A stretch of 64,000 bases of DNA, taken from assembly GCF_048403405.1 (NCBI RefSeq), contig NZ_CP183129.1. One strand, written 5' to 3'. This DNA comes from Escherichia coli. Its GTDB lineage: Bacteria; Pseudomonadota; Gammaproteobacteria; Enterobacterales; Enterobacteriaceae. This document shows positions 7,250 through 46,277 of this stretch, piece by piece (the first letter of the stretch is position 1; the number at the start of each line of letters is the position of its first letter). Both the position numbers and the translations under genes were made by a program. The notes beneath the pieces are model-generated. The model was given only the letters and a program-made list of their open reading frames with translations. It searched no databases and was not told where the DNA came from.

Positions 7250-8803
7250 TTACTTGATATCTTTCACGCGCATACCGTTGATCTGTTCATCCGTGATGGT
7301 GTTACCCGCTTTGAAGTAATCAACCACGGCGTGATAAACGTAATAACCGCCCGTTGTGTTACGCGCTTTCCCTTCGGTAAAGGCGGTAAAACCATCTCCA
7401 CCATCAGCAAGGAAACTCTGAGTAGCAATGTGGTAAATCGTCGCATCTTCAATGGGTTTGCCATTCAGAGTCAGCGTGATTACCCGCTGACCAACCGGCT
7501 TACTGCTGTCGTACTTCATTTCCAGGCCTTTCGATACCTGTAAAACGCCATTACTTAAACTTGCGCCGTGTTCCATCAAACTGCGTAATTGTTTACCCGT
7601 GAGATCCATCGTCACCAGTTCGTTGGGAAACGGGAAGGTACTGATGACGCCGCCCATCGTAATCGCCCCTGCGGGGATCTCATTGCGAATGCCGCCAGAG
7701 TTGGTTAACGCCAATTGGGTGTTTTTACCCGCCGCTACCAGTAAAGCATCAGCCGCCAGGTTCCCGAGGGAAGCCGATTCACCATAGGCACGTTTTAATT
7801 CAACCGGCGATTTCGCGACCGTTTGTTGCACCACTTCATCAAGCTTTTTATTCCAGCCGTCGATCACCTGTTTTGTTTGCGGATCGGGCTTCCACTCGTC
7901 GGCGTAAATGGTTTTAAGCTCGAAGTTTTTCACCGTAAAATCATGCGGCTTCTCTTTGTAGTCGAGAACCAGTTTGCCCACATCAATCCCGCCGCTGTCA
8001 GTGGAGAGGATGAGCGTATTGCCGACTTTAATCGGTTCCGGCGTACCCACATGCGCATGTCCGGTGATCAAAATATCCAGCCCTTTCACCTGACTTGCCG
8101 TCTGAATATCTTTATCCAGCGCGCGACGCACATCTGTGCCTCCCATACTGGACTGGCGGGCCGGAACACCTTCATGGATCAGGGCGACGGTCAAATCAAC
8201 CTTGCCTTTAAGTTCATCGATATAACGTTGTAGCCATTTAATTTCATCACGCGCTTCAATCCCCACTCGCGTTGCCGCAGATACCGTGTCATTAAAGGCA
8301 AATACACCGTGCAAACCTATAACGCCTATTTTCACGCCGTCTTTTTCGATGATGGTATATGGCTTATCCCAGAATGATTTACTGCTGTTCTGATAAAAAA
8401 CATTGCCCTGCACAATAGGGAATTTTGCCTGACTCAACTGTAATAATGTGTTGTCCCAGCCGTGGTCAAATTCATGGTTGCCTATCGTGACGGCATCAAA
8501 CGGCATAGTATTCATAATATCGATAATAGCCTTACCTTTGGTCAGGCTGCTGATATATGGCCCGGTAAAATAATCACCCGCATCAAAAAACCATGTCGCT
8601 TTATTTTTTGCTTTTTCTTGCTTAACCAGCGTAGTGATATTTGCCCAGCCGCCAATATCCCGTTTACCATCAGCGATCCACGGCACTTTATAAGGCTCGA
8701 CATGCGCATGGAGGTCGTTGGTATAAATGATGGTGACATCTTTGGCGCAAGCCCAAAACGGCAGTGTTAATGCGATACCCGCAGCAAGTATTTTAATTTT
8801 CAT
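7250..8803 (-). CDS. periplasmic bifunctional metallophosphatase/5'-nucleotidase (UshA/YfkN family)
   Basis: 517 aa; signal peptide [20 protein letters not shown]; calcineurin-like motifs NDLHAH, GDYFTG, GNHEFD, GHAH; C-terminal 5'-nucleotidase-like region; RBS aaggga. Confidence 0.8.
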
Positions 8804-8935
8804 AAACAGTCCCTTTCAGTGAGATAAAGGATTGCTACATTACGTTCTGAAAGAGTTATTTATGTGAGAGTAATCACATCCACAGGGGAGCGTTGCCGGA
8901 CAAAATCAACGACCATGTGAAATCGTTGGTGATAT

Positions 8936-10066
8936 ATGTCGACTCTGTTTACGATTAATGCCTGCAAGTCGTTTGGTTGCCGTAATTTAGGGCAGCCAAC
9001 ATCTAAAGATTATAGCTGGCCCGACTATCGGCTGGGTTATCCGGCATTGCACTGTCGGGCATGTGGCAGTTACCCGCCGTTGTTTGACGAGCAACAATTT
9101 CGTGACTGGTTGTCAGTTCACTTATCTACTTTTGCAACAGAGAAAGGCCATTTTTGCCCGGTATGTTATGGCACAAAGACGATTTGTTATGGCCACAATC
9201 CACAGGGGTCGCAACGCATTCAATGTCGTAACTGCAAAAAAGTCTGGACACCTAAACAATATCAGAAAGAAATAACGCCTCCTGAAATAATCGAAACGGT
9301 TGCTCTTCTGGTGCCATTTCAGGGAGCCAGCAATGGGCAGAAACTGTATGTTTTAATCAGTTTTGATGCTCTTCGCGGTAATATTCTTCATCTTTCTACT
9401 AATTACACGCAGCATCAGGCTGGAGAAAGTCTGCATTATCGATACAGAGGGAATGCAGAACCAGAGTTACACGAGAGTAATATTGTACAACGCGTTGATA
9501 TGCGCGAAGCACAATTTCTACGCCGCAGTCAGTTTGATGAAATTCAGTATGGCAGCGCAGCGCTCAAACGCAATGCTAAAGGTGTTATTCTGCGTCCGGT
9601 TATCACTGCACACGGGCATTTCAGAGTACTGAATATTTTATTCCCTACAGTAAAAACACATGTAATTTCACACGAGTGTTTTTTAAGAGGTGCGATTATT
9701 ACGGCCTGGGCAGAACTGTTTCGCCAACAGCAAGGTGAGATTTGGTTTATTGAAGAGGAAATAGCTGACTATACCGATAATACGCCCTGGCGTTTTCAGG
9801 GAAAAACTTATCACGGCTGGTGGAAAAATCAGTGGCAACTCTGGGTTCAGGGCAAAAATCGTAAAATGGTATGTGCATTAACGGGCGGAAATATCAGCAA
9901 AGCTGAAATGCTCTCTTTAGCAACCAGCAGACATTTTATCGACTGGCTACATAAACAAGCAGTATTTACTCACAGCGCCCCGCTTTCCGCAGGGCGCGTT
10001 ACGCAAATACTGCTTTCTCTGGCTCAGGATTACAACAACTGCGCCAGGCGGTTAATATCCGACTGA
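8936..10066 (+). CDS. hypothetical Cys-rich protein with N-terminal zinc-ribbon motifs (CxxC...CxxC), function unknown
   Basis: 376 aa ORF; CRACGS, CPVCYG-x19-CRNCKK reminiscent of IS1/IS1595 transposase zinc ribbons; 3' end overlaps the metL 3' end convergently. Confidence 0.5.
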   Translation: MSTLFTINACKSFGCRNLGQPTSKDYSWPDYRLGYPALHCRACGSYPPLFDEQQFRDWLSVHLSTFATEKGHFCPVCYGTKTICYGHNPQGSQRIQCRNCKKVWTPKQYQKEITPPEIIETVALLVPFQGASNGQKLYVLISFDALRGNILHLSTNYTQHQAGESLHYRYRGNAEPELHESNIVQRVDMREAQFLRRSQFDEIQYGSAALKRNAKGVILRPVITAHGHFRVLNILFPTVKTHVISHECFLRGAIITAWAELFRQQQGEIWFIEEEIADYTDNTPWRFQGKTYHGWWKNQWQLWVQGKNRKMVCALTGGNISKAEMLSLATSRHFIDWLHKQAVFTHSAPLSAGRVTQILLSLAQDYNNCARRLISD

Positions 10067-12464: not shown

Positions 12465-13625
12465 TTACCCCTTGTTTGCAGCCCGGAAGCCATTTTCCAG
12501 GTCGGCAATTAAATCTTCGCCATCTTCAATACCGGTGGAGATACGCAGCAGCGTCTCTGAGATCCCGGCGGCAGCACGCGCTTCTGGTGCCATGCCTGCA
12601 TGTGTCATGGTTGCGGCGTGAGAGATTAAACTTTCCACTCCCCCTAATGATTCCGCCAGCGTAAACAACGACAGCCCGCCCAGGAAACGACGCAGCGTCT
12701 GCTCATCGCCATCCAGTTCAAAACTCAACATTGCGCCAAAGCCTTTTTGCTGGCGCGCGGCAATTTCATGCCCCTGATTTTCCGGCAGCGACGGGTGATA
12801 CAGTTTTTTCACCAACGGCTGGGTTTGCAGATATTTCACAATCGCCTGCGCGTTGCGCTGGGCCAGCTCCATACGCGGCACCAGAGTTCGCAAACCGCGT
12901 AGCAGCAGATAGCTGTCAAACGCGCCGCCCGTCACGCCAATATTGTTTGCCCACCAGGCCAGTTCGGTGACAACGTCCGGATCTTTAGCAATCACCACGC
13001 CGGCCACCACGTCTGAGTGACCGTTCAGATATTTCGTGCATGAATGCAACACCAGATCGGCACCTAATGCCAGCGGATTTTGTAATGCCGGGCTTAAGAA
13101 GGTGTTATCCACCACACTCACCGCCCCGACTTCCCTTGCCAGATGGCAGATTTTCGCAATATCCACGACGCGTAACAATGGATTACTTGGGCTTTCTACC
13201 AGTATCAGTTTGGGGTTTTCTGCCAGCGCTGCCCGTAATGCCTGTTCATCGCCTTGATCAACAAACAACACGCGATAGCAACCGCGTTTCGCCAGGCTGT
13301 CGAACAGGCGATAGCTACCGCCGTAGCAGTCGTGCGGCGCAACCAGCAGATCGCCAGGTTTCAAAAAGACGGTCGTTACCAGGTGAATCGCGGACATGCC
13401 GGTATTAGTAAGTACGGCACCGGCACCGCCTTCCAGTTCTGCCAGCGCACGCTGAACCACATCGCGCGTTGGGTTGCCACGACGCGAGTAATCATGCGCG
13501 CGCGGTTCATTAAATCCGGTAAAGTTATAGGTGCTGGAAAGATGGATCGGTGGGACAACGCAACCATACTGTTCGTCGTCATTTAACCCGCTACGCACTG
13601 CGATGGTGGCCTGTTTACGCGTCAT
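12465..13625 (-). CDS. metB: cystathionine gamma-synthase
   Basis: ORF 12465..13802 trimmed to ATG 13625 (MTRKQATIAVRSGLNDDEQYG); 386 aa; PLP-dependent; 2 nt upstream of metL. Confidence 0.95.
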   Translation of the reverse strand: MTRKQATIAVRSGLNDDEQYGCVVPPIHLSSTYNFTGFNEPRAHDYSRRGNPTRDVVQRALAELEGGAGAVLTNTGMSAIHLVTTVFLKPGDLLVAPHDCYGGSYRLFDSLAKRGCYRVLFVDQGDEQALRAALAENPKLILVESPSNPLLRVVDIAKICHLAREVGAVSVVDNTFLSPALQNPLALGADLVLHSCTKYLNGHSDVVAGVVIAKDPDVVTELAWWANNIGVTGGAFDSYLLLRGLRTLVPRMELAQRNAQAIVKYLQTQPLVKKLYHPSLPENQGHEIAARQQKGFGAMLSFELDGDEQTLRRFLGGLSLFTLAESLGGVESLISHAATMTHAGMAPEARAAAGISETLLRISTGIEDGEDLIADLENGFRAANKG

Positions 13626-13686
13626 GTGATGAAGTTCCCTGGGCTTGGTCGGTGAAATGTCAGGCACCAGAGTAAACATTGTGTTA

Positions 13687-13720
13687 ATGGACGTCAATAC
13701 ATCTGGACATCTAAACTTCT
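13687..13720. promoter_or_regulatory. metB/metJ divergent operator: tandem met boxes (ggacgtca atacatct ggacatct aaacttct)
   Basis: Four contiguous 8-bp AGACGTCT-like repeats in the metB-metJ intergenic region. Confidence 0.75.
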
Positions 13721-13901
13721 TTGCGTATAGATTGAGCAAATCCCAAATAGCCGTTAAAATTATATGCATTATCACGCCGACAGGTGCATTACACGATGTC
13801 ACGGTAACGCCTGTACGGTAAACTATGCGGGTTTACGGTCAGTACCCACATAAATTGTGTGGTCTGGTCTCAATTTATTGACGAAGAGGATTAAGTATCT
13901 C

Positions 13902-14219
13902 ATGGCTGAATGGAGCGGCGAATATATCAGCCCATACGCTGAGCACGGCAAGAAGAGTGAACAAGTCAAAAAGATTACGGTTTCCATTCCTCTTAAGGTG
14001 TTAAAAATCCTCACCGATGAACGCACGCGTCGTCAGGTGAACAACCTGCGTCACGCTACCAACAGCGAGCTGCTGTGCGAAGCGTTTCTGCATGCATTTA
14101 CCGGGCAACCTTTGCCGGATGATGCCGATCTGCGTAAAGAGCGCAGCGACGAAATCCCGGAAGCGGCAAAAGAGATCATGCGTGAGATGGGGATTAACCC
14201 GGAGACGTGGGAATACTAA
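13902..14219 (+). CDS. metJ: methionine repressor MetJ
   Basis: ORF 13857..14219 trimmed to ATG 13902 ([18 protein letters not shown]); 105 aa. Confidence 0.95.
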
Positions 14220-14228
14220 AGCGGAAAA

Positions 14229-14259
14229 GAGCGGCGCGGAGTTAACCAGCCGCTTTTTT
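14229..14259 (+). terminator. rho-independent terminator after metJ
   Basis: gcggcgcgg...ccgc stem followed by TTTTTT. Confidence 0.55.
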
Positions 14260-14278
14260 CATACATGGACGTTTAACG

Positions 14279-14887
14279 ATGAAAATCAGGCTACTGATCC
14301 TCAGCCTGCTGGTTTCTGTGCCTGCATTTGCCTGGCAACCACAAACCGGCGACATCATCTTTCAGATCTCTCGCTCATCGCAAAGTAAAGCGATCCAACT
14401 GGCGACCCATTCCGATTACAGCCACACCGGTATGCTGGTGATGCGTAACAAAAAGCCCTACGTTTTTGAAGCGGTCGGCCCGGTGAAATACACCCCGCTC
14501 AAGCAGTGGATTGCCCATGGTGAAAAGGGCAAATACGTTGTTCGCCGCGTTGAAGGCGGACTGAGTGTTAAACAACAGCAAAAACTGGCGCAAACGGCAA
14601 AACGTTATCTCGGCAAACCGTACGATTTCAGCTTCTCGTGGAGCGACGATCGCCAGTACTGTTCGGAAGTGGTGTGGAAGGTTTACCAGAATGCGCTGGG
14701 AATGCGCGTGGGCGAACAGCAGAAGCTGAAAGAGTTCGACCTGAGCAGCCCACAAGTTCAGGCAAAGCTCAAAGAACGTTACGGCAAGAATATTTCGCTT
14801 GAGGAAACGGTAGTTTCACCACAAGCCGTTTTCGATGCGCCACAACTCACCACGGTCGCCAAAGAGTGGCCGCTGTTTTCGTGGTAA
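14279..14887 (+). CDS. yiiX: YiiX-family putative lipid-binding hydrolase (signal peptide)
   Basis: 202 aa; MKIRLLILSLLVSVPAFAWQPQTGDIIFQ. Confidence 0.8.
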   Translation: MKIRLLILSLLVSVPAFAWQPQTGDIIFQISRSSQSKAIQLATHSDYSHTGMLVMRNKKPYVFEAVGPVKYTPLKQWIAHGEKGKYVVRRVEGGLSVKQQQKLAQTAKRYLGKPYDFSFSWSDDRQYCSEVVWKVYQNALGMRVGEQQKLKEFDLSSPQVQAKLKERYGKNISLEETVVSPQAVFDAPQLTTVAKEWPLFSW

Positions 14888-14890
14888 TGG

Positions 14891-14974
14891 ATGATGAAAA
14901 AAATAATTCCCGCCGTAGTCTGTTTGTTGCTTTGTAGTTGCACGACCTTTCCGCAAGCTGTCGCTCCGGTAAAC
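14891..14974 (+). pseudogene. 5' fragment of a lipoprotein gene (MMKKIIPAVVCLLLCSCTTFPQAVAPVN) truncated by the IS1 left end
   Basis: ATG 3 nt after yiiX stop; lipobox-like LLCSC; frame runs into the IS1 inverted repeat and stops inside it. Confidence 0.3.
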
Positions 14975-15031
14975 GGTGATGCCTCCAATTAGTTGAATTA
15001 AGGATATAATACTCGCTTTTAAGGTTGTTTC

Positions 15032-15304
15032 ATGGTCACAGTTAACCTTCATTGTCCCCGTTGCCAGTCCGTTCAGGTTTACCGTCACGGGCAGAACCCC
15101 AAAAGACATGATCGATTCCGCGGCCGTGACTGTCACCGGGTATTTCAACTCAGTTACTGTTACGAGCCCCGTAAACCGGGAGTTAAAGACCAAATCGCTG
15201 AAATGGCTTTCAACGGTGCCGGGGTTCGCTATACTGCCCGTACGCTGAAAATCGGCATTAATACAGTCATCCGAACTTTAAAAAACTCTCGCCACGAAGA
15301 ATAA
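15032..15304 (+). CDS. insA: IS1 InsA (zinc-finger / HTH transposition inhibitor)
   Basis: 90 aa MVTVNLHCPRCQSVQVYRHGQ... aligns with IS1 InsA by eye. Confidence 0.8.
   Translation: MVTVNLHCPRCQSVQVYRHGQNPKRHDRFRGRDCHRVFQLSYCYEPRKPGVKDQIAEMAFNGAGVRYTARTLKIGINTVIRTLKNSRHEE
15280..15286 (+). promoter_or_regulatory. A6C programmed -1 ribosomal frameshift motif of IS1 (aaaaaac)
   Basis: Motif at the insA 3' end, as in canonical IS1. Confidence 0.6.
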
Positions 15305-15322
15305 CGTCATCCCCGGTCGCTC

Positions 15323-15738
15323 ATGCTGATGTGGCACTCATCTGCGAACGTAGTCAGCAATGGAGCTTTGTCGGCAGTAAAGCGCGACAGCACTGGCTCT
15401 GGTACGTGTACAACACGAAAACTGGTGGTGTTCTGGCCTACACTTTTGGCCCCCGGACTGATGAAACCTGTCGTGAACTGCTGGCGCTGCTTACCCTTTT
15501 ACCATCGGCATGTTGACCACTGACGAATGGGGTAGTTACGCTAGAGAGTTACCAAAGGAGAAGCATCTGACTGGTAAGATTTTTACTCAGCACATTGAGC
15601 GTAACAATCTGACCCTGAGAACCCGAATCAAACGTCTGGCCCGCAGAACCATCTGTTTCTCGCGTTCTGTAGAACTTCATGAAAAAGTCATCGGTGCTTT
15701 TATCGAAAATATATGTTCTACTAATTGGAGTCATCACC
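15323..15738 (+). pseudogene. insB: IS1 insB, interrupted by an additional frameshift near 15480-15510; reading frame also runs past the right IR
   Basis: InsB-like sequence split between two frames (…AYTFGPRTDETCRELLALLTLLPSAC* / …PFTIGMLTTDEWGSYARELPKEKHLTGKIFTQHIERNNLTLR…). Confidence 0.6.
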
Positions 15739-15793
15739 CTTCTGATGAGCTTTCCTTGGATGATTACCAGACTGAATACACAGCCAAAGATTT

Positions 15794-16117
15794 TTACCTC
15801 ATTCTGCTCTTTTTTCTCAAATGACATATATTATATTTTACATCATATTCATAGGTATATGACATTCCCCCGCCCCCCATTATGTCATTGTGGGTTGATG
15901 TTGGGCTTTCATAAAAAAATACATCTTTTTTTGAACTAGCATTAATTATATTTACTTTATATATTAAAATATTTTCTCCATCTGGAAATATTTTAGCCAC
16001 ACAATATAAAGCAGCTAAATCCGAATTACTTAAAAATATATTGTCATCACTCATAACTCCAGCCATTAAATGACTGGAGACTAAAGCAAGGAAATAACAA
16101 CATTGTATTGCCTTCAT
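15794..16117 (-). CDS. putative immunity protein for the orphan Rhs C-terminal toxin
   Basis: 107 aa from ATG 16117 (MKAIQCCYFLALVSSHLMAG...), GGGAG RBS, start 1 nt after the orphan rhs-CT stop; N-terminal hydrophobic segment; AT-rich. Confidence 0.55.
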   Translation of the reverse strand: MKAIQCCYFLALVSSHLMAGVMSDDNIFLSNSDLAALYCVAKIFPDGENILIYKVNIINASSKKDVFFYESPTSTHNDIMGGGGMSYTYEYDVKYNICHLRKKSRMR

Positions 16118-16118
16118 T

Positions 16119-17654
16119 TTAATTACTCCCTTGCCTGATAATTGCAACTCCATTCCCTTTAGCTTTGGGATTATATTTTAGATAGGTGTTATTTGGTGTT
16201 CCCAAGTAACTACTGTATTCTTTTTTTCCCATTCCATTCATATAAGAATTCGTTAAATCTTTGCTTGAAAAATTTAGACTATCATAAACATCATTTTCTT
16301 TTGTTACTTTATTTCCTTTATCGTCAGAGTAAAAACCGTGAGTGTGATAATCACCTACTCTCTCTGAACCTTCAGGGCATTTTATATTTCGCAAGTCTAC
16401 ACTATCATTATCATTTGAACTTATCGGATTCATAGGGAAATATTCACCTTGCTTCTTACATATTAGTCCACCATATTCTTTATTCTTGTTAATTGATTCT
16501 CCATTACACATTGCCAATGCAAATATTCCAATATCATCTATATTTTTTGATTTAAATTCATATAATCCTAATGGATCCATGCCATTCACCGGGCTCAGCG
16601 GATATGTATACAGGTTCCATCCCCCCTTCAGCCCAATCGGATCCTGAGTGATATACCGCCCCTGCAGCGGGTCATAATAGCGGTGGCGGTTGTAATACAG
16701 GCCGGACTCCTCATCATACTGCTGACCCGGCAGGCGGATGAGCTGCTGCAGCTGATGCGGGTTCTCTTCATTCAGCTGGTTACCCCATTCATCGTATTCT
16801 GCGCACCATTCTGTTGCCCCTTCCGTGCTGACAAGCGCCAGCGGCAGGCCGCGATGGTCGCAGTGGTACAGGTGGATTTTTCGCGCCGGCGTGTACACCG
16901 GGTCCATCTGGTTTTGTATCTGCTCCACCGTCAGGCCGCACGATGCCAGCCAGCGGCGGCTTTCCTCGCTCACCCGGTCAGCCAGGATTTCACTTTCCAG
17001 CCGGTCGAGCATCTGCACCAGCACCGGCGGGAACACCACACTGCCACCGTCTTCACCGCCGGACTGCTGAAGCGCATCCGCCAGGCTGCGGCGCTGCGTT
17101 TTCGCCAGCTCACCGGTGGCAGTTTCAACTCTGATGAGTGGCGTGAAGCTCCCCGGCTGATAAACCGTCTGGATGCGGGTTCTGTCGTTCTGTATTGTGG
17201 TCAGCCGGTCGCCGTCCCAGCCGTACCAGGTCACTTCCGGTTTCCATGACAGCGACATCCAGCCCGTCAGGTCCCGTTCACGCCGCCATACCCGTTTTGC
17301 CACCCTGCGGCCCAGCAGGTCGTAAAGATAGCGACTTTCGACCAGCGGCTCTGCATATTGTGTCCGCGTGTAGTGCACCAGCCGGTGCCGGCTGTCGTAA
17401 TGGTACCGGTGAGTCCGCTCATCATCCGTGCGGATAACCCCTTCCGGGATGAGGTCGGTTTTCTCCGTCAGCCTGCCGTGACGGTCATACCGGTAAAGAT
17501 AGTGCGCGTCACGGGCGATACGGTTATCCGGCCATGCGCTGAGGGGGCTGTCCGGGTGCAGCTCCGGGTCGGGCAGGCGGTTGCCTGCCGGGTCCGTGGC
17601 ATACGGGATATCAATGCCCAGGTTACATATAATAATAAGAGCAATTAACTTAAT
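16119..17654 (-). CDS. orphan Rhs C-terminal module: 5'-truncated rhs core ending in the DPLGL motif plus a distinct ~150 aa toxin tip; no start codon of its own
   Basis: Frame is open from 17654 but first ATG/GTG/TTG is at 17378; residues ...[22 protein letters not shown]...[39 protein letters not shown] are near-identical to the main rhs; tip contains YHTHG. Confidence 0.7.
16606..17608 (-). repeat. ~1.0 kb direct repeat (orphan copy) of the rhs core 3' region
   Basis: Near-identical to 20946..21938 (only scattered mismatches on visual alignment). Confidence 0.8.
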
Positions 17655-17981
17655 TTATTTGTTTATAATGCGCTTACTTAATACAAACCATTGAATATAC
17701 CCTCCTGACAGAAAATAAAGCCATATTATTATCGCCATAATATACTTACTATCAATCCTTACGCCAATAATGTCTGAAACAGTCCCTATAAATATTAGAG
17801 CAATAAAGAATACTATGCCTGTTGGAAAACAGATTACCATCATTCCATAAGACATGAGACTAATTAACTCGCTCACATCACGAGTGGAGTCTAATAGTGA
17901 AAGTCTATGCATGGAAAAGAATAGTATTAAAAGCGATAAAGCCAGCCATATAGCTCTGAATAAAAAAATAATATATTTCAT
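17655..17981 (-). CDS. small polytopic membrane protein (108 aa), candidate stranded immunity protein
   Basis: MKYIIFLFRAIWLALSLLILFF...; about three hydrophobic helices; AT-rich; stop codon directly abuts the orphan rhs frame. Confidence 0.4.
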   Translation of the reverse strand: MKYIIFLFRAIWLALSLLILFFSMHRLSLLDSTRDVSELISLMSYGMMVICFPTGIVFFIALIFIGTVSDIIGVRIDSKYIMAIIIWLYFLSGGYIQWFVLSKRIINK

Positions 17982-18059
17982 TACATCACTCCGGTGAATA
18001 CAAATCTAATAAAGCGTCCAATGTTATTTCCGGAGCACTTCATCTTACATGTTTCTAAA

Positions 18060-19260
18060 GAATCATTAGACCAGTCAGGGCAAGATTACGAAAGCCCGCT
18101 CCCCGCAAGGACTGACGCGAGATAGTTTCTGTCCATGGCTGCTTTTCGCATCTTACGTCTTAACCCTGCCTTGAATACCTTATCATTCGTCAAAATATTA
18201 ATAGCAATGTGCCGTATCCCTGAAAATAATTCTGCTGCGTTTCCTCTTCTTATTTTGCAGTCGTCTTCATTCATTACCACGTCCAGACGCCAGTGCAGCT
18301 TATTCTCCACGTGCCAGTGGTTTCGGATTGCTGTGGCGAACTTCTCAGCGGTTAAATCAGCAGAGCTGATATAATATCTGACCGTCATTTCTGGCTCTTT
18401 CTTTTGTTCTGCTATTATTGACCGAAAGGAGACTGCCACGTATAATTTTTCAGTCCTTTCCATTCAAATGTAAAATCAATAAGTTCATCAGGGACATCGC
18501 AAACAATATGAAGACGGATTTCTTCTCTGCCGTGACTCTTTTCACTAATTGCGTAACTGTCATGCTCTGGATTAATTAATTCTTTCAGCGGAAATGTTTC
18601 CTCAAAGGCTTTATTCAGCCGCCCCTGGTTTCCTTTTACAGCGAATAAGTAATCACCACCCTGTTTTTGTATCTTCTCTGCAATATCTTTCTGGCAACCC
18701 ATCGCATCAGTTGTGATGATTTTCTCTTTAATATACAAAATGTTAAGAAGTTCAGGGATAGCTGTGATCTCATTAGATTTCTCATCCGTCCTGATCTGCC
18801 CCAGGACCAGAATGTGCATTGTTGAGAACGCACTAATGACATGAATCGCTCCCCTGCGGCGACTCTTGTCATAAGAATGCCGGAGTGTTTTTCCATCAAT
18901 TGCGATGACGTCTTTATCATCTGAAGTATGGCAATCTCGCATCCAGTTAATAAAGCACTCGTGAAATTTTGCAGGACTGATACAGGATACAACTCTGGCG
19001 ATGGTATCGTGAACAGGAATACCATTTTCAAAATCACCGTATTGTTTTAAAAAATCGAGATGTGTTTCCCCAAAATCCTCTATATCTTCCCAACCTTCTG
19101 CACCCGAAATAACGGCACAAATAGTCAACAGTAGAATATCCGATAATTTATGTTCCACTTTCCAGGCTTGTCTGTAATCGGGGATAATAGAAATATGCTC
19201 CATCAATTTTTTAAGTTCCATTTTGTTCTCCTTAATTATGTAAGGAGTATTTGATCATGT
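18060..19260 (-). mobile_element. H-repeat / ISAs1-family element (approximate boundaries)
   Basis: Contains the H-rpt transposase; termini not defined by eye. Confidence 0.5.
18086..19221 (-). pseudogene. H-repeat-associated (ISAs1-family) transposase, split by a frameshift near 18415-18463
   Basis: 268 aa N-terminal piece ([28 protein letters not shown]...) and 125 aa C-terminal piece (…[21 protein letters not shown]…) in different frames. Confidence 0.75.
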
Positions 19261-19324
19261 ATAAGCAATAAAAAACAGCTTTAGGTAATGAGGAATATCT
19301 CAATTTTCAAACATAAAATGCGAA

Positions 19325-19920
19325 TTATTTAGTACAAAAAAGCAGCGTTACGTGATCTTTCCCTGGCATGTCATTAGATGAACCAGTTATACAACCCTCG
19401 GAACAGAATCGAGGTCCTAAAGACGGACCAAAAGCGTTTAAACAACTATGTATTGAAAATCCATTACGATTATAAGTTCCTGTATTAACTGACGGTACTA
19501 ATCGTATGCCGTCAGGTTTTCTATTGCTTGCTCCCGGGTCATTAACATTCCAACTCCATAGGCCTTGAGGTATTGGCCCTCTATTTATAAATGTGTACAA
19601 CGGGGATTATTTTTACATTGCATATTATTACCAGAAGCGACTGGAATACTAAGCACATCATAAAAATTATCATCACCTGGTATATCTGAAACACACGAAA
19701 GCATACCTAAAGTTATGCTGTATAAACAGGTGGCTAATCCCAAGGGGATCGATTCCAGAAATCGGGTTCAACGGATACTGATAAAAATTCCACCTACCTT
19801 CCAGCCCAATCGGAGCCTGAGTGTTATACCGCCCCTGCTGCGGTTAATGTTACCGATAATAGTTATAGTACAGCCCTGATTCATCATCATACTACTGCTG
19901 CGGCAGTCTGATGAATTATT
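19325..19920 (-). pseudogene. degenerate orphan rhs-CT remnant (rhs core 3'-end fragment with stops and intact DPLG codons, then a decayed tip)
   Basis: 19770..19920 is roughly 75% identical to the rhs core end by eye; translation gives [51 protein letters not shown] then a stop; 91-aa ORF 19325..19600 follows. Confidence 0.55.
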
Positions 19921-19924
19921 GCTT

Positions 19925-20392
19925 TTACGGATTCTCCTTATTCTTCCTTCTATCCATTCGCTTTAGCTTTAGCTTTTTGAGATCTTGAAGTTTGCTCTTT
20001 GCATCAATATTACCGTTATTTACAGCGAATTCCATCCAATAAATAGCTTTATTCAAATTATAATGTTCTGATAATATTGGATTTGTATCCGATAAAAAAA
20101 ACCCATAATTAAACTGCGCTGTAACACTCCCCTGAGATGCTGATCTTTCTAAGTATCGCAATTGTTTGTAAATGTTATTTTTAGTAAAGCAGTAATATTG
20201 ATATAGTCGAAATGATGCCTCTGAATCACCATGTTGTGATTTATACTTCAGTTTCATCAACTTTTCTTCACTTAAATCATAGGTCATTGCTGTAGACCCC
20301 ATCATACTTTCGTTTTGTTTTATTTTCACATCAGCACCATGCAATTGAAAAATAAAAGAGAAATAAAAAAATAGTAACAAGCATGCTTTCAT
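19925..20392 (-). CDS. putative Rhs immunity protein, secreted, Sel1-like repeat
   Basis: 155 aa; signal peptide MKACLLLFFYFSFIFQLHGA; Sel1/TPR-like segments (…ASQGSVTAQFNYGFFL…, …AIYWMEFAVNNGNIDA…); starts 12 bp after rhs stop; AT-rich. Confidence 0.6.
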   Translation of the reverse strand: MKACLLLFFYFSFIFQLHGADVKIKQNESMMGSTAMTYDLSEEKLMKLKYKSQHGDSEASFRLYQYYCFTKNNIYKQLRYLERSASQGSVTAQFNYGFFLSDTNPILSEHYNLNKAIYWMEFAVNNGNIDAKSKLQDLKKLKLKRMDRRKNKENP

Positions 20393-20403
20393 ACATCTAC
20401 AAC

Positions 20404-23400
20404 CTATCTTATATCACTGGGTTTTTCTGGCGTACCTTGCATATTAGAAATGGGGTGCCCAGATGGCCCATATGTTATCCAATTACCAAGGTCTTTTGTT
20501 GTTATAGCCATTAGATCCTTATTTGAATTAAGGTTCGTTGGTGCTGTTAGCACTGTATCCATTTTTAACTTACCATTAGTTCCTCGCCCCCACCACGTCC
20601 ATAGCGTGTCAGGTCCTATTACATTTGTATGTAACTCTTTAGCTAATTGGCTAGCAAATGAATTTTGTCCTTTACCTGTATTACAAGAAAATAACCAAAC
20701 TGTCATCCCATCTTTATAATTCCCATCAAATTTAATTAGATATGCTAGATCTTTAGCTGTCATGATACTGCGCGTTGCGGATTCAATAGATGTGGGGGTA
20801 CCATGCCCCCCGATTGTGAAAACGCCTGGGATATTAATCTCATCAGCTACAGAATGGATAAGATCACTTTCGGGGTATAAATTTATATCAACCAAACCTT
20901 GCGGATCTACATTTATGACCGGATCCAACGGATACTGATAAAAATTCCATCCCCCCTTAAGCCCAATCGGATCCTGAGTGATATACCGCCCCTGCAGCGG
21001 GTCATAATAGCGGTGGCGGTTGTAATAGAGGCCGGACTCCTCATCATACTGCTGACCCGGCAGGCGGATGAGCTGCTGCAGCTGGTGCGGGTTCTCTTCA
21101 TTCAGCAGGTTGCCCCATTCATCGTATTCTGCGCACCATTCTGTTGCCCCTTCCGTGCTGACAAGCGCCAGCGGCAGGCCGCGATGGTCGCAGTGGTACA
21201 GGTGGATTTTTCGCGCCGGCGTGTACACCGGGTCCATCTGGTTTTGTATCTGCTCCACCGTCAGGCCGCACGATGCCAGCCAGCGGCGGCTTTCCTCGCT
21301 CACCCGGTCAGTAAGGATTTCACTTTCCAGCCGGTCGAGCATCTGCACCAGCACCGGCGGGAACACCACACTGCCACCGTCTTCGCCGCCGGACTGCTGA
21401 AGGGCATCCGCCAGGCTGCGGCGCTGCGTTTTCGCCAGCTCACCGGTGGCGGTTTCAACTCTGATGAGTGGCGTGAAGCTCCCCGGCTGATAAACCGTCT
21501 GGATGCGGGTTCTGTCGTTCTGTATTGTGGTCAGCCGGTCGCCGTCCCAGCCGTACCAGGTCACTTCCGGTTTCCGTGACAGCGACATCCAGCCCGTCAG
21601 GTCCCGTTCACGCCGCCATACCCGTTTTGCCACCCTGCGGCCCAGCGGGTCGTAAAGATAGCGACTTTCGACCAGCGGCTCTGCATATTGTGTCCGCGTG
21701 TAGTGCACCAGCCGGTGCCGGCTGTCGTAATGATACCGGTGAGTCCGCTCATCATCCGTGCGGATAACCCCTTCCGGGATGAGGTCGGTTTTCTCTGTCA
21801 GCCTGCCGTGACGGTCATACCGGTAAAGATAGTGCGCGTCACGGGCGATACGGTTATCCGGCCACATGCTGAGGGTGCTGTCCGGGTGCAGCTCCGGGTC
21901 GGGCAGGCGGTTACCTGCCGGGTCCGTGGCATACGGGATGCGGATATCCAGATTCGCTGCGGTGGTGTGGACGCCGGTCAGCCTGCCGGTGTCGCTGTAG
22001 CTGTAACTCCGGGTCTGGCGCGGGCTGCTGATGCGGATGAGTTCGCCGTTGTCGTTCCAGGTGTAATCGCGGTCATACTGCAGGCTGTTCAGGTGCTGGC
22101 TCTGTAACTGCCCGGCAGAGGTGTAAGCGGTGGTGAGTTCATAACGGCCGAAGCTGCGCAGCGTTTCCCGGTGCAGGCGGTCGCGGGTGAAATCCACCAG
22201 CGGTGTGTCGCCGAGTTTCATGCCTGACAGCCAGCCGCTGCCGTAGGTCAGCCATTCCACGGCGGGCAGGCTGTCCGGTATACAGCGGTTCGCCAGTCCC
22301 TGCGCGTTGTACGCATGTCTGGTTTCATGCTGCCAGAGCAGTGCTTCCGTCTGCGGGTGATGCACCGTCTGGCGCTCACCGGTCAGGCGGCCTTTCTCAT
22401 CATACCCGTAATGCACCGTCACCCGGTGGCCTTCGCTGAGATGGCTGATGCCTGTCAGCCAGCCGCGTTCGTCGTACCGCCACTGTTCTGCGGTTTCACC
22501 ATTCACCGTTCGCTGTGTGATGCGGTCTGCTTCGTCATAGTGCCAGTGGGTGACCAGCCCCTCATCCTCGCTGCGGATAAGTTTGCCGGTCAGGTCGTGG
22601 TGATAACGCTGTGTGCGGCCGTCAAAGCCGGTTTCCTGTATCAGCCGGTCAAGTACATCGTAACGGAAGGTGGTGTGGCTGCCGTTTTCACTGGTCAGGC
22701 GGATGACCCGCCCGGCAGCATCGTATTCCATACTGCGCGTCAGACCGCCCTGCGTGGTACGGATGGCCTTTCCCCACGCATCGTACTGTGTCCCGTTTCT
22801 GCTGTCGTCCGGGGCAATGACGGCGGTCAGGTCACCGGCGGCGTTGTATTCATACCGCGTTTCATGGCCCTGCATGTCTTTCACCGCAATTAACTGTCCA
22901 CGGCTGTCGTATGCGCGGTACTGGCTCAGGCCTTCCTCGCGGTGCACCGTCGTCACCTGACCAAAACGGTCATGGTCATAGCGGGTTACATAACCGGAAC
23001 AGTCGGTAAAGCTCAGCAACTGACCGTAACGGCTCCACGTCATGGTTTTCCGGCTGCCGGTGGCATCTTCCGTTGCGCAGGGGAAGTCACTGTGTGGATT
23101 ATCATAACGGTAGCGGGTGATATCGCCGTCAGGGGCGGTTTCCTGAATCAGACGGCCGGATTCATCATATTTGCGGCGCAACTCCAGCCCGTCAGTCCCG
23201 GTGGCTGACGTTAACTGGTTGTGGTGGTTATAGTAAAATGCCGATGCCCTGCCATCCGGTGTGGTGATGCGCGTGATGAGTCCCGTCACCACATCCGGGC
23301 TGTACTCAGTCGTCCGGCCTGCGGCATCCGTCTGTGCCTTAAGCCTGCCCACCGCATCAAACTGACTCTGCGCGACGCTGCCGTCCGCGTGTTCCTTTTT

Positions 23401-24633
23401 CACCACCCGCTTCAGCCCGCCTTCGCCCTGCGTGTGCAGCACTTCACGGCGGTCCAGACTGTCGGTGATGGTGATGCGGTCTTTCTCATACTGATACGTG
23501 TAGCTTAAGCCTGCCGGGTTTAGCTGCTCTGTCACCCGCCCGTCGCTGTCGTAACGGTAACGGATTTCCGGCCGGCCCGCGCGGCGGTGCGCCACCATCC
23601 GGCCCCGGTATTTATCATCGTAAGTAAAGCTGCGCACCTGTTTGCCACTGCGGTCATACACCGCCGCCAGTTCGCCGCGTGGCGTCCAGCCATAGCGCAC
23701 CAGCGGCGCGGCAGGTAAATTCTCCGGGTATTCAGGGTCGTGTGTCAGCCACACGGCAGACAGACGGATACCGTTGTCCCGGCCATATTCCGTGTAGTCC
23801 GGCAGGGTATCAGGAAAAGCGGACGGTTCCGTCCCGCCGGAAGTGGCCTTCTGCCGGGCCTCTTCTGCCCGCTGCGCCTGCGTGGTCAGTACCAGCCGGA
23901 AGTGACGCCCGGCACCATCCGTCACGCCGGTGATTTCGCCGCTGAATTCACCGCCAGCCTCACGGTGAAACGTCTGTGTGCGCCCGAAGCGGTCCACCAG
24001 CCCGGTCAGTACCCGGTACGGCGGCAGCGGCGCGGGCAGCACCTCATCCGCCTCCGGCACCTGCTCACACCAGCCGAGTACCCACCACGGCCCCTGCGGA
24101 CTGTTTGTCGCCAGATAACGATGCGGACTCAGGCGGAGTTCTTCCGGCAGCGCCTGCCAGAGTGCGGCCAGCCGGTGACCTTCATCCAGTTTCAGGACAC
24201 CGCCACGCACCAGCCAGAGTGATTCGCTGCGGCTGTAACCGTCCTCACCGGGAAACAGGTGCTCAAAATACAGGCTCCTGCCGCCGTTATCACTGAGTAT
24301 CAGTGTGTTATCGCGCAGCTGTAGGCGGATATCCGCAGGCATTTTCCAGCCGGGGCCGAGGCTCCCCACCGGCGCGGGCGTTTTTGTCCGGTAACTGCTG
24401 TAGGTGCGGGAGAGGATGAACGGCAGCGGGCCGGGCAGGGCAAGGTCGGTTTCGCCGGGAAGGACCTTCGCACCGAGCAGCGGATTGACCGGATGGCCGG
24501 ACGTCACCCCGCCGGGGCACACCGAACAGGCCACGCCGGTGGGGGCACCAATACGTACCCCGGCAGAACCCTGAACAATGCTACCGCCATACTGCGTCAT
24601 GTCGCCCTGACGCGCCGCCGGTTTTCCGCTCAT
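20404..24633 (-). CDS. rhs: Rhs-family polymorphic toxin (PAAR-like N-terminus, YD repeats, core ending PxxxxDPxGL, variable C-terminal toxin tip)
   Basis: 1409 aa; N-terminus [31 protein letters not shown]; many YD-type repeats; ...[14 protein letters not shown] followed by a ~162 aa AT-rich tip. Confidence 0.9.
20946..21938 (-). repeat. ~1.0 kb direct repeat (main rhs copy) shared with the orphan rhs-CT
   Basis: Near-identical to 16606..17608. Confidence 0.8.
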
Positions 24634-24752
24634 CGTAAAATCCTTTTGAAATAAATAAGAACCAGAAGCCTAGCGCCAGTCAACAACAGGAAATGATAAT
24701 GAGTTAACACCCCGGAATTTTTCAGAATTTATAAAAGGCAAATTACAGGCAC

Positions 24753-24779
24753 AAAAAAAGCGCCGTGCGGCGCTTTTTT
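24753..24779 (-). terminator. rho-independent terminator of rpmE (bidirectional hairpin)
   Basis: aaaaaaa-gcgccg-tgc-ggcgc-tttttt. Confidence 0.7.
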
Positions 24780-24792
24780 CGGAAATCCGGTC

Positions 24793-25044
<252 letters not shown>

Positions 25045-25048
25045 CTAA

Positions 25049-27406
<2,358 letters not shown>

Positions 27407-45697: not shown

Positions 45698-46198
45698 CTA
45701 CTGGGAACGTGAGTTGCTACTACTCAATAGCTTCAACGATGAACTTTTTTGCCATTGCGTCACGTCGCGCAACTGCTCCATTCGTTGTTGATGTTTCTCG
45801 TTTAAAACCGCTTGCTGCTCCGGCGTTAACAGGCGATACATTTGGTTGCGGACTTTTGCCATCTCAACCTGACGAGCAATTTGCTCATTCGCCATTTTTT
45901 CTGCCTGCGCGCGCACAGCGTTTTCATCAAAATTTTCTGCGGTGACAAGGCGATGCATTGTCTCCAGTTCGCTAACATTAACAGGAGGCTGTTCGTGCCG
46001 GGCCTGTTGCATAAGATCTCGCATCTGCTGACGCTGATGTTCGGTTAAACTTATGCCGTCGAACATATGGCTCTGCGTACTGCGCTGCGTAAGTTCTTCA
46101 CCCGGATGCCAGTTATCGCCTGAACCGACTTCAGCAGCGTGGCTTAATGAACTGACTGCCAGCGTTGAGGCCATGACGGCAGCGGTAACTATGCGCAT
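45698..46198 (-). CDS. cpxP: periplasmic stress adaptor CpxP
   Basis: 166 aa from ATG 46198 ([24 protein letters not shown]); two LTxxQ motifs. Confidence 0.9.
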
Positions 46199-46277
46199 CA
46201 TTTGCTCCCAAAATCTTTCTGTCGCGATTCAACGATAGAGAGTTTACGATTCAGGCTGCAAACATGCGTCAGGGGGT

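Follow-up and report, generated by a model that had tools for sequence, protein, structure and literature searches.

The closest described counterpart of the element analysed here, which lies between yiiX and rpmE in a 64,000-nucleotide stretch of Escherichia coli DNA (assembly GCF_048403405.1, contig NZ_CP183129.1; the whole stretch is termed the window), is rhs locus 11 at yiiX–priA, which arose when the RhsC locus was duplicated (Jackson et al., 2009; PMC2935791). The same work describes C-terminal displacement, in which new tip/immunity cassettes recombine onto a conserved Rhs core and older tips become start-less orphans downstream. For the full-length Rhs protein, the reference structure is Tse5 of the Pseudomonas aeruginosa H1 type VI secretion system (H1-T6SS; PA2684; PDB entry 8CP6). 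Tse5 is cut at K47|P48, and its 5 kDa N-terminal piece, called PAAR-like by the authors, is needed for VgrG-dependent secretion; its tip is a pore-forming toxin and tse5 adjoins vgrG1c. For the toxin tips, the nearest described systems are Tce1 and Tce2 of the P. aeruginosa H3-T6SS, which are putative cysteine proteases carried as Hcp-loaded cargo without immunity genes, the cysteine protease domains (CPDs) of MARTX RtxA and TcdA/TcdB (family C80, clan CD), which are self-processing modules of large toxins, and Tox-JAB-2/DUF4329 with its Imm-NTF2-2 partner (Zhang et al., 2012; PMC3482391).

Set beside these systems, the yiiX–rpmE element is best explained as a layered variant of RhsF produced by C-terminal displacement, and its intact rhs gene probably encodes a T6SS-delivered toxin with a peptidase-fold tip, against which a YibG-type protein protects. 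The element occupies the chromosomal site of locus 11, and its core falls in the RhsA-B-C-F subfamily (95–96% identical to K-12 rhsA and rhsC). It is identified as RhsF through the RefSeq name dsORF-f3 and through nomenclature, not through an alignment with the ECOR-50 sequence. We take dsORF-f3 to be the Hill-laboratory name for the third open reading frame (ORF) downstream of RhsF, and the three serial downstream ORFs found here (yibG type, ybfB and f3) are consistent with a numbering from f1 to f3. RhsF of ECOR-50 was reportedly presented by Zhao and Hill in 1995, in J Bacteriol 177:1393, as a 'Reshuffling of Rhs components'; the title fits the mosaic seen here, in which components of other Rhs elements are combined. 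The 'RhsF/RhsFI' of enterohaemorrhagic E. coli (EHEC; PMC7618764) was considered as the same locus and rejected, since it is ECs0604 in S-loop 44 and was named under a different scheme.

Occupancy of the site was surveyed in complete E. coli genomes (5,426; 5,425 for the flank query, in which the two flanks were joined to give a 1 kb sequence). The yiiX and rpmE flanks are contiguous in 3,244 of the 5,425 genomes and split in the remainder, and the DUF4329 tip together with dsORF-f3 is present in 2,164 of 5,426, with one chromosomal copy each; by these counts, rhs is present at yiiX–rpmE in about 40% of complete E. coli genomes. Where rhs is present, a simple form is most frequent, consisting of IS1, dsORF-f3 and one full-length rhs, as seen in O157:H7 86-24 and NDM1. 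The layered form is held by 148 of the 5,426 genomes (at least 80% of window 13800–25200 in one piece), and this region is 100% identical in GN02461 and three more complete genomes. The simple form is about 15-fold commoner than the layered form, and this greater abundance suggests that it is the older state. An earlier note on this DNA had proposed a layered locus of Rhs polymorphic toxins and immunity genes where K-12 has none, and the survey agrees: K-12 is empty, and the majority of complete genomes do not carry these genes there. The novelty that the note implied did not survive, given the published rhs locus 11, the RhsF name in RefSeq, the occupancy of about 40% and the 148 genomes with the layered form. 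The locus is already known as a catalogued RhsF element and is not a new kind of system.

The layered form amounts to the simple form plus 4.3 kb. Simple RhsF (O157:H7 z5488 and many strains) shares IS1, dsORF-f3, the DUF4329 tip and the flanks with the window at 96–98% identity, but its DUF4329 tip is fused to the full-length gene, whereas here the extra 4.3 kb is present, the core carries a new tip and the old tip is orphaned. Collinearity of the window with the O157 form extends over 13003–17609 and again from 20926 on, with 1,014 bp of the O157 gene used twice. A direct repeat of 1,022 bp (16588–17609 and 20918–21939) is gapless and 97.2% identical. Every module of the element also occurs in K-12 or O157. 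Positions 16588–18082 (1.5 kb) are 97.1% identical to the block of the K-12 RhsC locus that comprises the rhsC 3' end, ybfB and the ybfO core fragment, positions 18076–19369 are 95% identical to the K-12 H-repeat ybfL, and positions 19366–21373 (2.0 kb) are 97.5% identical to the yibJ–yibG–yibS–yibW block of the K-12 RhsA locus. Gene order in the RhsA- and RhsC-locus blocks is the same in K-12 as here. The tips are attached differently: the K-12 yibJ tip is an orphan pseudogene, whereas here it is fused to an intact core as a deployable toxin, and the K-12 ybfO fragment carries the ybfO tip, whereas the ybfO-like core fragment here carries the DUF4329 tip.

Remnants of further tips lie between the two rhs frames. 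The ISAs1 element truncates an RhsC-type tip, the last 35 codons of which precede ybfB. The ybfB gene follows rhsC in K-12, is 97% identical to its counterpart in the K-12 RhsC locus and encodes three hydrophobic segments; it appears to be a stranded gene of the immunity type. The decayed tip, which contains several stops and is 97.5% identical to the K-12 RhsA locus, retains a 152 bp stretch of divergent core, 77.6% identical to that of the main gene. This pseudogene fragment gives weak Pfam matches to Tlde1_dom (E = 0.011) and YkuD (E = 0.13), an L,D-transpeptidase/Tlde1-like signature. Read as displacement, the oldest layer would be the one next to IS1, namely the DUF4329 tip with dsORF-f3; about 2,000 other genomes still have this tip on the full-length gene. 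The second would be the RhsC-type tip with ybfB, the tip having since been truncated by ISAs1, and the last would be the 2 kb block, the order of which is identical to that of K-12 yibJ–yibG–yibS/W. Immunity genes retained in this way should keep the cell resistant to relatives that fire the older toxins. RecA-mediated deletion at the 1,022 bp, 97% identical repeat could re-fuse the orphan DUF4329 tip to the core and thereby switch the toxin, and the orphaned modules would represent both retained immunity and a recombination reservoir.

The intact rhs gene encodes a protein of 1409 residues that matches the NCBIfam profile NF041261 (RHS_core) over its full length (residues 1–1247; 2609.9 bits, cutoff 2000). 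A DUF6531 plug is located at residues 46–123, YD repeats are found by 11 matches to PF05593 (RHS_repeat) at E ≤ 0.001 and by TIGR01643 (6.6e-36), and the Rhs-associated core (TIGR03696, residues 1170–1247) ends in PxxxxDPxGL, after which the variable tip begins; the orphan frame also has the core-end motif. The earlier identification of this ORF as an rhs gene with YD repeats and a core domain is confirmed by these matches. The best relative in the PDB is Tse5 (2.6e-125), and the deposited Tse5 shell chain starts at the residue aligned with P48. The two proteins share the short N-terminal peptide, the DUF6531 plug, the YD shell and the C-terminal autoprotease, and both lack a transmembrane pre-PAAR region. 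Residues 2–29 of the Rhs protein show a weak resemblance to the final strand of two PAAR proteins, SalCis10 (E = 0.024) and PDB entry 4jiv (E = 0.69). In contrast to Tse5, the tip has a peptidase fold and no vgrG is linked to the gene. The host was checked for a T6SS, as the earlier note had suggested, using GN02461, a genome identical over this region, in which a complete system (tssA–M, two hcp genes, vgrG and another rhs) was found at a tRNA-Asp island. The vgrG-linked rhs of that island (1,301,717–1,308,280) has a small ORF and an ISAs1 (H-repeat) element behind it, a layout that echoes the yiiX–rpmE locus.

A word-indexed protein search with the active tip (Rhs residues 1248–1409) returned only Escherichia and Salmonella relatives, whereas an exhaustive HMMER search reached further, to at least 562 cluster representatives that include Rhs tips and giant proteins with two to five copies of the domain. 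In an alignment of 42 tip sequences the residues H30, G31, L67 and C70 are invariant, H30 and C70 corresponding to H1277 and C1317 of the Rhs protein. Strands 24–28 and 64–68 of the tip precede the His and the Cys, giving the order His-Gly...Cys with each after a β-strand. By fold comparison the tip has the caspase-hemoglobinase fold, and the closest folds are those of Tce1 and the inositol hexakisphosphate (InsP6)-activated CPDs of RtxA and TcdA; sequence identity to the Tce proteins and CPDs is 11–12%. Four of the 42 tip relatives match DUF4347 at E ≤ 0.001, with C13, C80 and C25 matched only at E > 0.001, and the best match of the tip profile against PDB sequences is legumain, aligned on the catalytic His and Cys at E = 0.2. 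The tip is a clan CD (TcdA/RtxA CPD-like, Tce1-like) putative cysteine-peptidase fold. A papain-like amidase of the NlpC/P60 type was considered and rejected on the His-then-Cys order and the clan CD fold. Unlike in the Tce proteins and CPDs, the domain here forms the whole Rhs tip and is accompanied by a conserved Sel1 partner. RefSeq labels the family DUF8616, and the RhsA tip of EDL933, which has been modelled as TcdA-CPD-like (PMC7216683), is probably the same tip. Among giant proteins of other organisms (P0049, P0052, P0053, P0055, P0057 and P0067; 3,100–6,800 residues) the clan-CD-like domain occurs three to five times, and there it may be a processing module.

A small ORF lies directly 3' of both the active and the orphan tip, the yibG-type gene 11 nt after the rhs stop and dsORF-f3 1 nt after the orphan stop. 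The yibG-type product is a Sel1-repeat protein of 155 residues, the sole hydrophobic stretch of which (residues 1–19, then LHG/AD) is by inspection a putative export signal. Searches of NCBIfam, PADLOC and Pfam with this protein gave noise only (MerG, E = 0.0034; PtuA, E = 0.0037). In all five distant relatives examined (Salmonella salamae, two metagenomic Rhs genes, one further assembly and one genome with vgrG–DUF2169–Rhs, the latter Tox-PAAR-like) a Sel1/TPR-like gene is located directly 3' of the homologous tip. The Sel1 partners share a GDSxA..L.QYY-like motif, and between S. salamae and the window the tip is 47% and the partner 42% identical. An export or lipoprotein signal is present in the partners of three of the five relatives and in none of the other two (L014 7551–7910 and L018 6611–6955), whereas the enterobacterial partners do carry one; for the two without, either the gene starts were miscalled or the compartment of the toxin differs between lineages. 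The pairing resembles that of a toxin with its cognate immunity gene. The Sel1 protein is presumed to confer immunity to the main tip, whose site of action in enterobacteria is likely to be the periplasm.

The fold relatives would also fit a tip that targets eukaryotic cells, a role put forward for Tce2 and for the CPD family, with a Sel1 protein that is not an immunity protein. Tce1 belongs to an H3-T6SS and has no immunity gene, Tce2 is toxic in yeast and the other close folds are the InsP6-activated CPDs of RtxA and TcdA. We regard this explanation as very unlikely, since the Sel1-like gene next to the tip in every one of the five relatives, its conserved motif and its co-divergence with the tip in Salmonella form the signature of cognate immunity, and K-12 keeps yibG beside its orphan tip.

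The orphan rhs has no ATG, GTG or TTG before 17378. Hidden Markov model (HMM) searches with the tips and immunity ORFs, which the earlier note had called for, placed the orphan tip in Pfam DUF4329 (8.9e-16) and gave no Pfam family for the main tip, dsORF-f3 or ybfB; dsORF-f3 and ybfB also had no match in NCBIfam or PADLOC. The metal-site signature E...HxH...S..D of the orphan tip (E29, H73, H75, S99 and D102) is invariant in 37 sequences. A profile built from the DUF4329 alignment had no match among PDB sequences, and it was fold comparison alone that recovered the JAB fold; the orphan tip is a JAB/MPN+ metallohydrolase fold. With Tox-JAB-2 it shares the Pfam match, the invariant E, H[ST]H, S and D and the JAB fold; its partner gene is restricted to E. 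coli. Recent in silico surveys label DUF4329 an RNase, which the window data neither support nor refute. The partner, dsORF-f3, has a weakly hydrophobic N-terminus and co-occurs with the DUF4329 tip in the 2,164 genomes noted above; it is presumed, from this association, to be the immunity gene for that tip. The two tips had been described as uncharacterised. No experimental study of either was found, but the orphan tip is the DUF4329/Tox-JAB-2 domain (Zhang et al., 2012), and K-12 has the main tip and its Sel1 gene as the yibJ/yibG module. Two proteins of 248 residues (P0203 and P0242) join PAAR (PF05488) to DUF4329 with nothing in between, so that delivery of the JAB-fold toxin also takes the form of a minimal PAAR effector that has no Rhs shell.

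The orphan also bears on whether the locus acts inside its producer, as toxin–antitoxin-like (TA-like) or regulatory modules whose tips and immunity proteins are expressed from internal promoters and internal starts, independently of secretion. Internal use has reported precedents in the Salmonella Rhs orphans (PMC7043789) and in RhsFint–RhsFI of EHEC (PMC7618764). The orphan frame stays open for 419 codons from a GTG and is followed almost immediately by dsORF-f3, and promoter-like sites are found just upstream of it (17755–17728; 10 of 12 positions matched). Such matches, however, number 23 against a shuffled expectation of 13.5 (s.d. 3.5), only mildly above chance in AT-rich DNA, and a scan for promoters and terminators gave no convincing rhs promoter or internal promoter. 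The export of the immunity protein is more in keeping with a toxin that arrives from outside than with a TA pair in the cytoplasm, and internal use leaves an intact 4.2 kb delivery shell unexplained. This explanation is judged to be unlikely.

Decay raises a different alternative, that the island is a largely inert relic with at most an immunity function, whose modules decay while being carried along in a recombination hotspot. Of the four tips, three are orphans, truncated or filled with stops, both insertion sequences are frameshifted or lack a target duplication (the IS1 frameshift may be the native programmed one), similar remnants are present in K-12 and the NDM1 rhs is frameshifted. Set against this are the intact ORF of 1409 codons with its full-length RHS_core score, a tip that keeps its invariant His and Cys, an element that is 99–100% conserved in the best 30 of the 148 carrier genomes and the presence of a complete T6SS, so that an inert relic is an unlikely account.

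Delivery of an antibacterial toxin by the T6SS is better supported than any of these three alternatives (a eukaryotic target, use inside the producer or a relic). Several observations nevertheless weigh against such delivery. No match to PAAR (PF05488, DUF4150 or Tox-PAAR-like) was found in Rhs residues 1–1070 even at E ≤ 10, so that the description of the protein as PAAR-type in the earlier note holds only in the Tse5 sense of a 47-residue, putatively PAAR-like N-terminal peptide. No vgrG, hcp, chaperone or other T6SS gene is present within the window, and the T6SS is several hundred kilobases from the yiiX–rpmE locus. K-12 keeps related Rhs elements without any T6SS, and secretion of the subfamily cannot be assumed. 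The tip belongs to no Pfam peptidase family, and its closest solved relatives, Tce1 and Tce2, lack immunity genes and seem to act against eukaryotes. Of six Sel1 partners (that of the window and those of the five relatives), two have no export signal, rhs at this site is frameshifted in some strains, such as NDM1, and the order of layering is taken from one arrangement, not from a phylogeny. If the element does act as a T6SS-delivered toxin, the Rhs protein would mount on the VgrG spike of the strain's T6SS and be fired into neighbouring bacteria. The encapsulated 162-residue tip would then be released and would act as a clan CD (CPD/Tce-like) cysteine peptidase, probably in the envelope, while the producer would be shielded by the exported Sel1-repeat protein encoded just downstream.

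The features of the locus are listed in Table 1. The RefSeq annotation of GN02461 served as an independent naming of the parts and agrees with the ORF table and translations of the window; every part listed in the earlier note is present, at about the coordinates that it gave. The mosaic composition that it described was also recovered, with a GC content of 0.58–0.67 in the two core stretches and 0.31–0.40 in the tips and immunity genes.

Table 1. Features of the yiiX–rpmE element and its flanks in window coordinates
Feature	Position	Strand	Remarks
yiiX	14279–14887	+	Flank
5' remnant (~81 bp) of TIGR02117-family lipoprotein gene	14889–14974	+	Aligns with the start of the intact BL21-type gene; sequence MMKKIIPAVVCLLLCSC...
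IS1 (IS1H-like)	14975–15738	+	26-nt inverted ends; RefSeq 'IS1-like element IS1H family transposase'; yiiX-side edge
dsORF-f3	15794–16117	-	RefSeq 'RHS element protein dsORF-f3'; 107 aa
Orphan rhs, whole frame	16119–17624	-	RefSeq 'missing N-terminus'
Orphan tip, DUF4329/Tox-JAB-2	16122–16562	-	JAB/MPN+ metallohydrolase fold
Orphan rhs core fragment, start-less	16563–17648	-	NF041261 positions 991–1261; 97% identical to K-12 ybfO
ybfB membrane protein	17655–17981	-	RefSeq ybfB; three hydrophobic segments
Last ~35 codons of RhsC-type tip	17982–18086	-	RefSeq 105-bp partial CDS; aligns with K-12 rhsC 3' end
ISAs1-family (H-repeat) element	18076–19369	-	Transposase 18086–19221 frameshifted (RefSeq); two ORFs share the NF033564 matches; 95% identical to K-12 ybfL
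Decayed orphan tip (K-12 yibS/yibW type)	19370–19914 (also given as about 19325–19914)	-	Stops in all frames; RefSeq short RHS fragment with internal stop
yibG-type Sel1-repeat gene	19925–20392	-	RefSeq sel1/yibG; 155 aa
Intact rhs, 1409 aa	20404–24633	-	RefSeq 'RHS element core protein'
Active toxin tip (Rhs aa 1248–1409)	20407–20892	-	Putative clan CD cysteine-peptidase fold; dyad His1277/Cys1317
Rhs core: putatively PAAR-like N-terminal peptide (aa 1–47), DUF6531 plug, YD-repeat shell, Rhs-associated core	20893–24633	-	NF041261, TIGR01643, TIGR03696, DUF6531
rhs upstream region, locus-specific	24634–24745	-	rpmE-side edge; K-12/BL21 homology restarts at 24740/24746
rpmE	24793–25005	-	Flank

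With the BL21-type arrangement taken as ancestral, the insertion is 9.8 kb long (14975–24745) and lies between yiiX and rpmE. The start proposed in the earlier note stands, but its end at 24792 was moved inwards, since 24746–24792 is native rpmE-side spacer. The statement in the earlier note that yiiX and rpmE are adjacent in K-12 was correct: their spacing in MG1655 is 60 bp, and homology of the window to K-12 stops at 14888 and restarts at 24740. In BL21-type genomes a 624 bp TIGR02117-family gene is intact between yiiX and rpmE. The window matches only the first 81 bp of this gene (to 14974) and resumes at 24746; the element therefore replaced most of the lipoprotein gene, whose 5' remnant marks the original insertion target. 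Homology to K-12 rhsA and rhsC ends at the rhs start codon, and the upstream region of the gene is specific to the yiiX–rpmE locus. The TIGR02117 gene is wholly absent in K-12 and intact in BL21-type genomes, so that what looks 'empty' in K-12 is in fact a deletion.

The IS1 at the yiiX-side edge has inverted ends that are 88% complementary and encodes an insA/insB transposase according to RefSeq. No target-site duplication of IS1 was found: ...CCGGTAAAC borders one end and CTTCTGATG... the other, so that IS1 forms the junction between two unrelated sequences. It occupies the identical position in the simple form of O157 and NDM1. A recent simple insertion of IS1 was rejected on the lack of a target duplication and the same junction in the simple form of distant lineages.

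Elsewhere in the window, the metJ–yiiX spacer (14242–14246) is about 130 bp shorter than in K-12, the homology break lying between positions 1946 and 2077 of the reverse-complemented K-12 locus, and NDM1 shows the same spacer gap relative to the window as K-12. Two genes occupy the metL–metF interval (about 7250–10066): one for a hypothetical protein of 376 residues, its frame overlapping the metL end, and one for a bifunctional metallophosphatase/5'-nucleotidase. The pair is absent in the O157 and NDM1 genomes examined and looks like a small strain-variable insertion. An IS200C transposase gene is located at about 45741–46199 in the cpxP–fieF interval.

The locus itself adds nothing new, although C-terminal displacement at a catalogued Rhs site is cleanly and fully resolved here, and the case is usable for teaching or as a benchmark. 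The residual interest lies in the biochemistry of the yibJ/yibG-type toxin/immunity family. With its at least 562 cluster representatives and conserved Sel1 partner, the main-tip family has no entry in the Pfam release searched, and no paper on it was found in the literature searched. A tentative wider proposal, on the doubtful side of our own estimate, is that the tip and YibG represent a widespread antibacterial T6SS/Rhs family of small clan CD cysteine peptidases with dedicated Sel1 immunity, which in enterobacteria would attack an envelope substrate from within the periplasm; as a corollary, the DUF4329 tip would be an envelope JAB metallopeptidase and not an RNase, the N-terminus of dsORF-f3 being export-like, as is that of the Sel1 partner. 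The main-tip/Sel1 module corresponds to the y-genes yibJ and yibG of K-12; if the toxin/immunity assignment is true, both genes would be annotated and a new class of antibacterial peptidase toxin would be defined.

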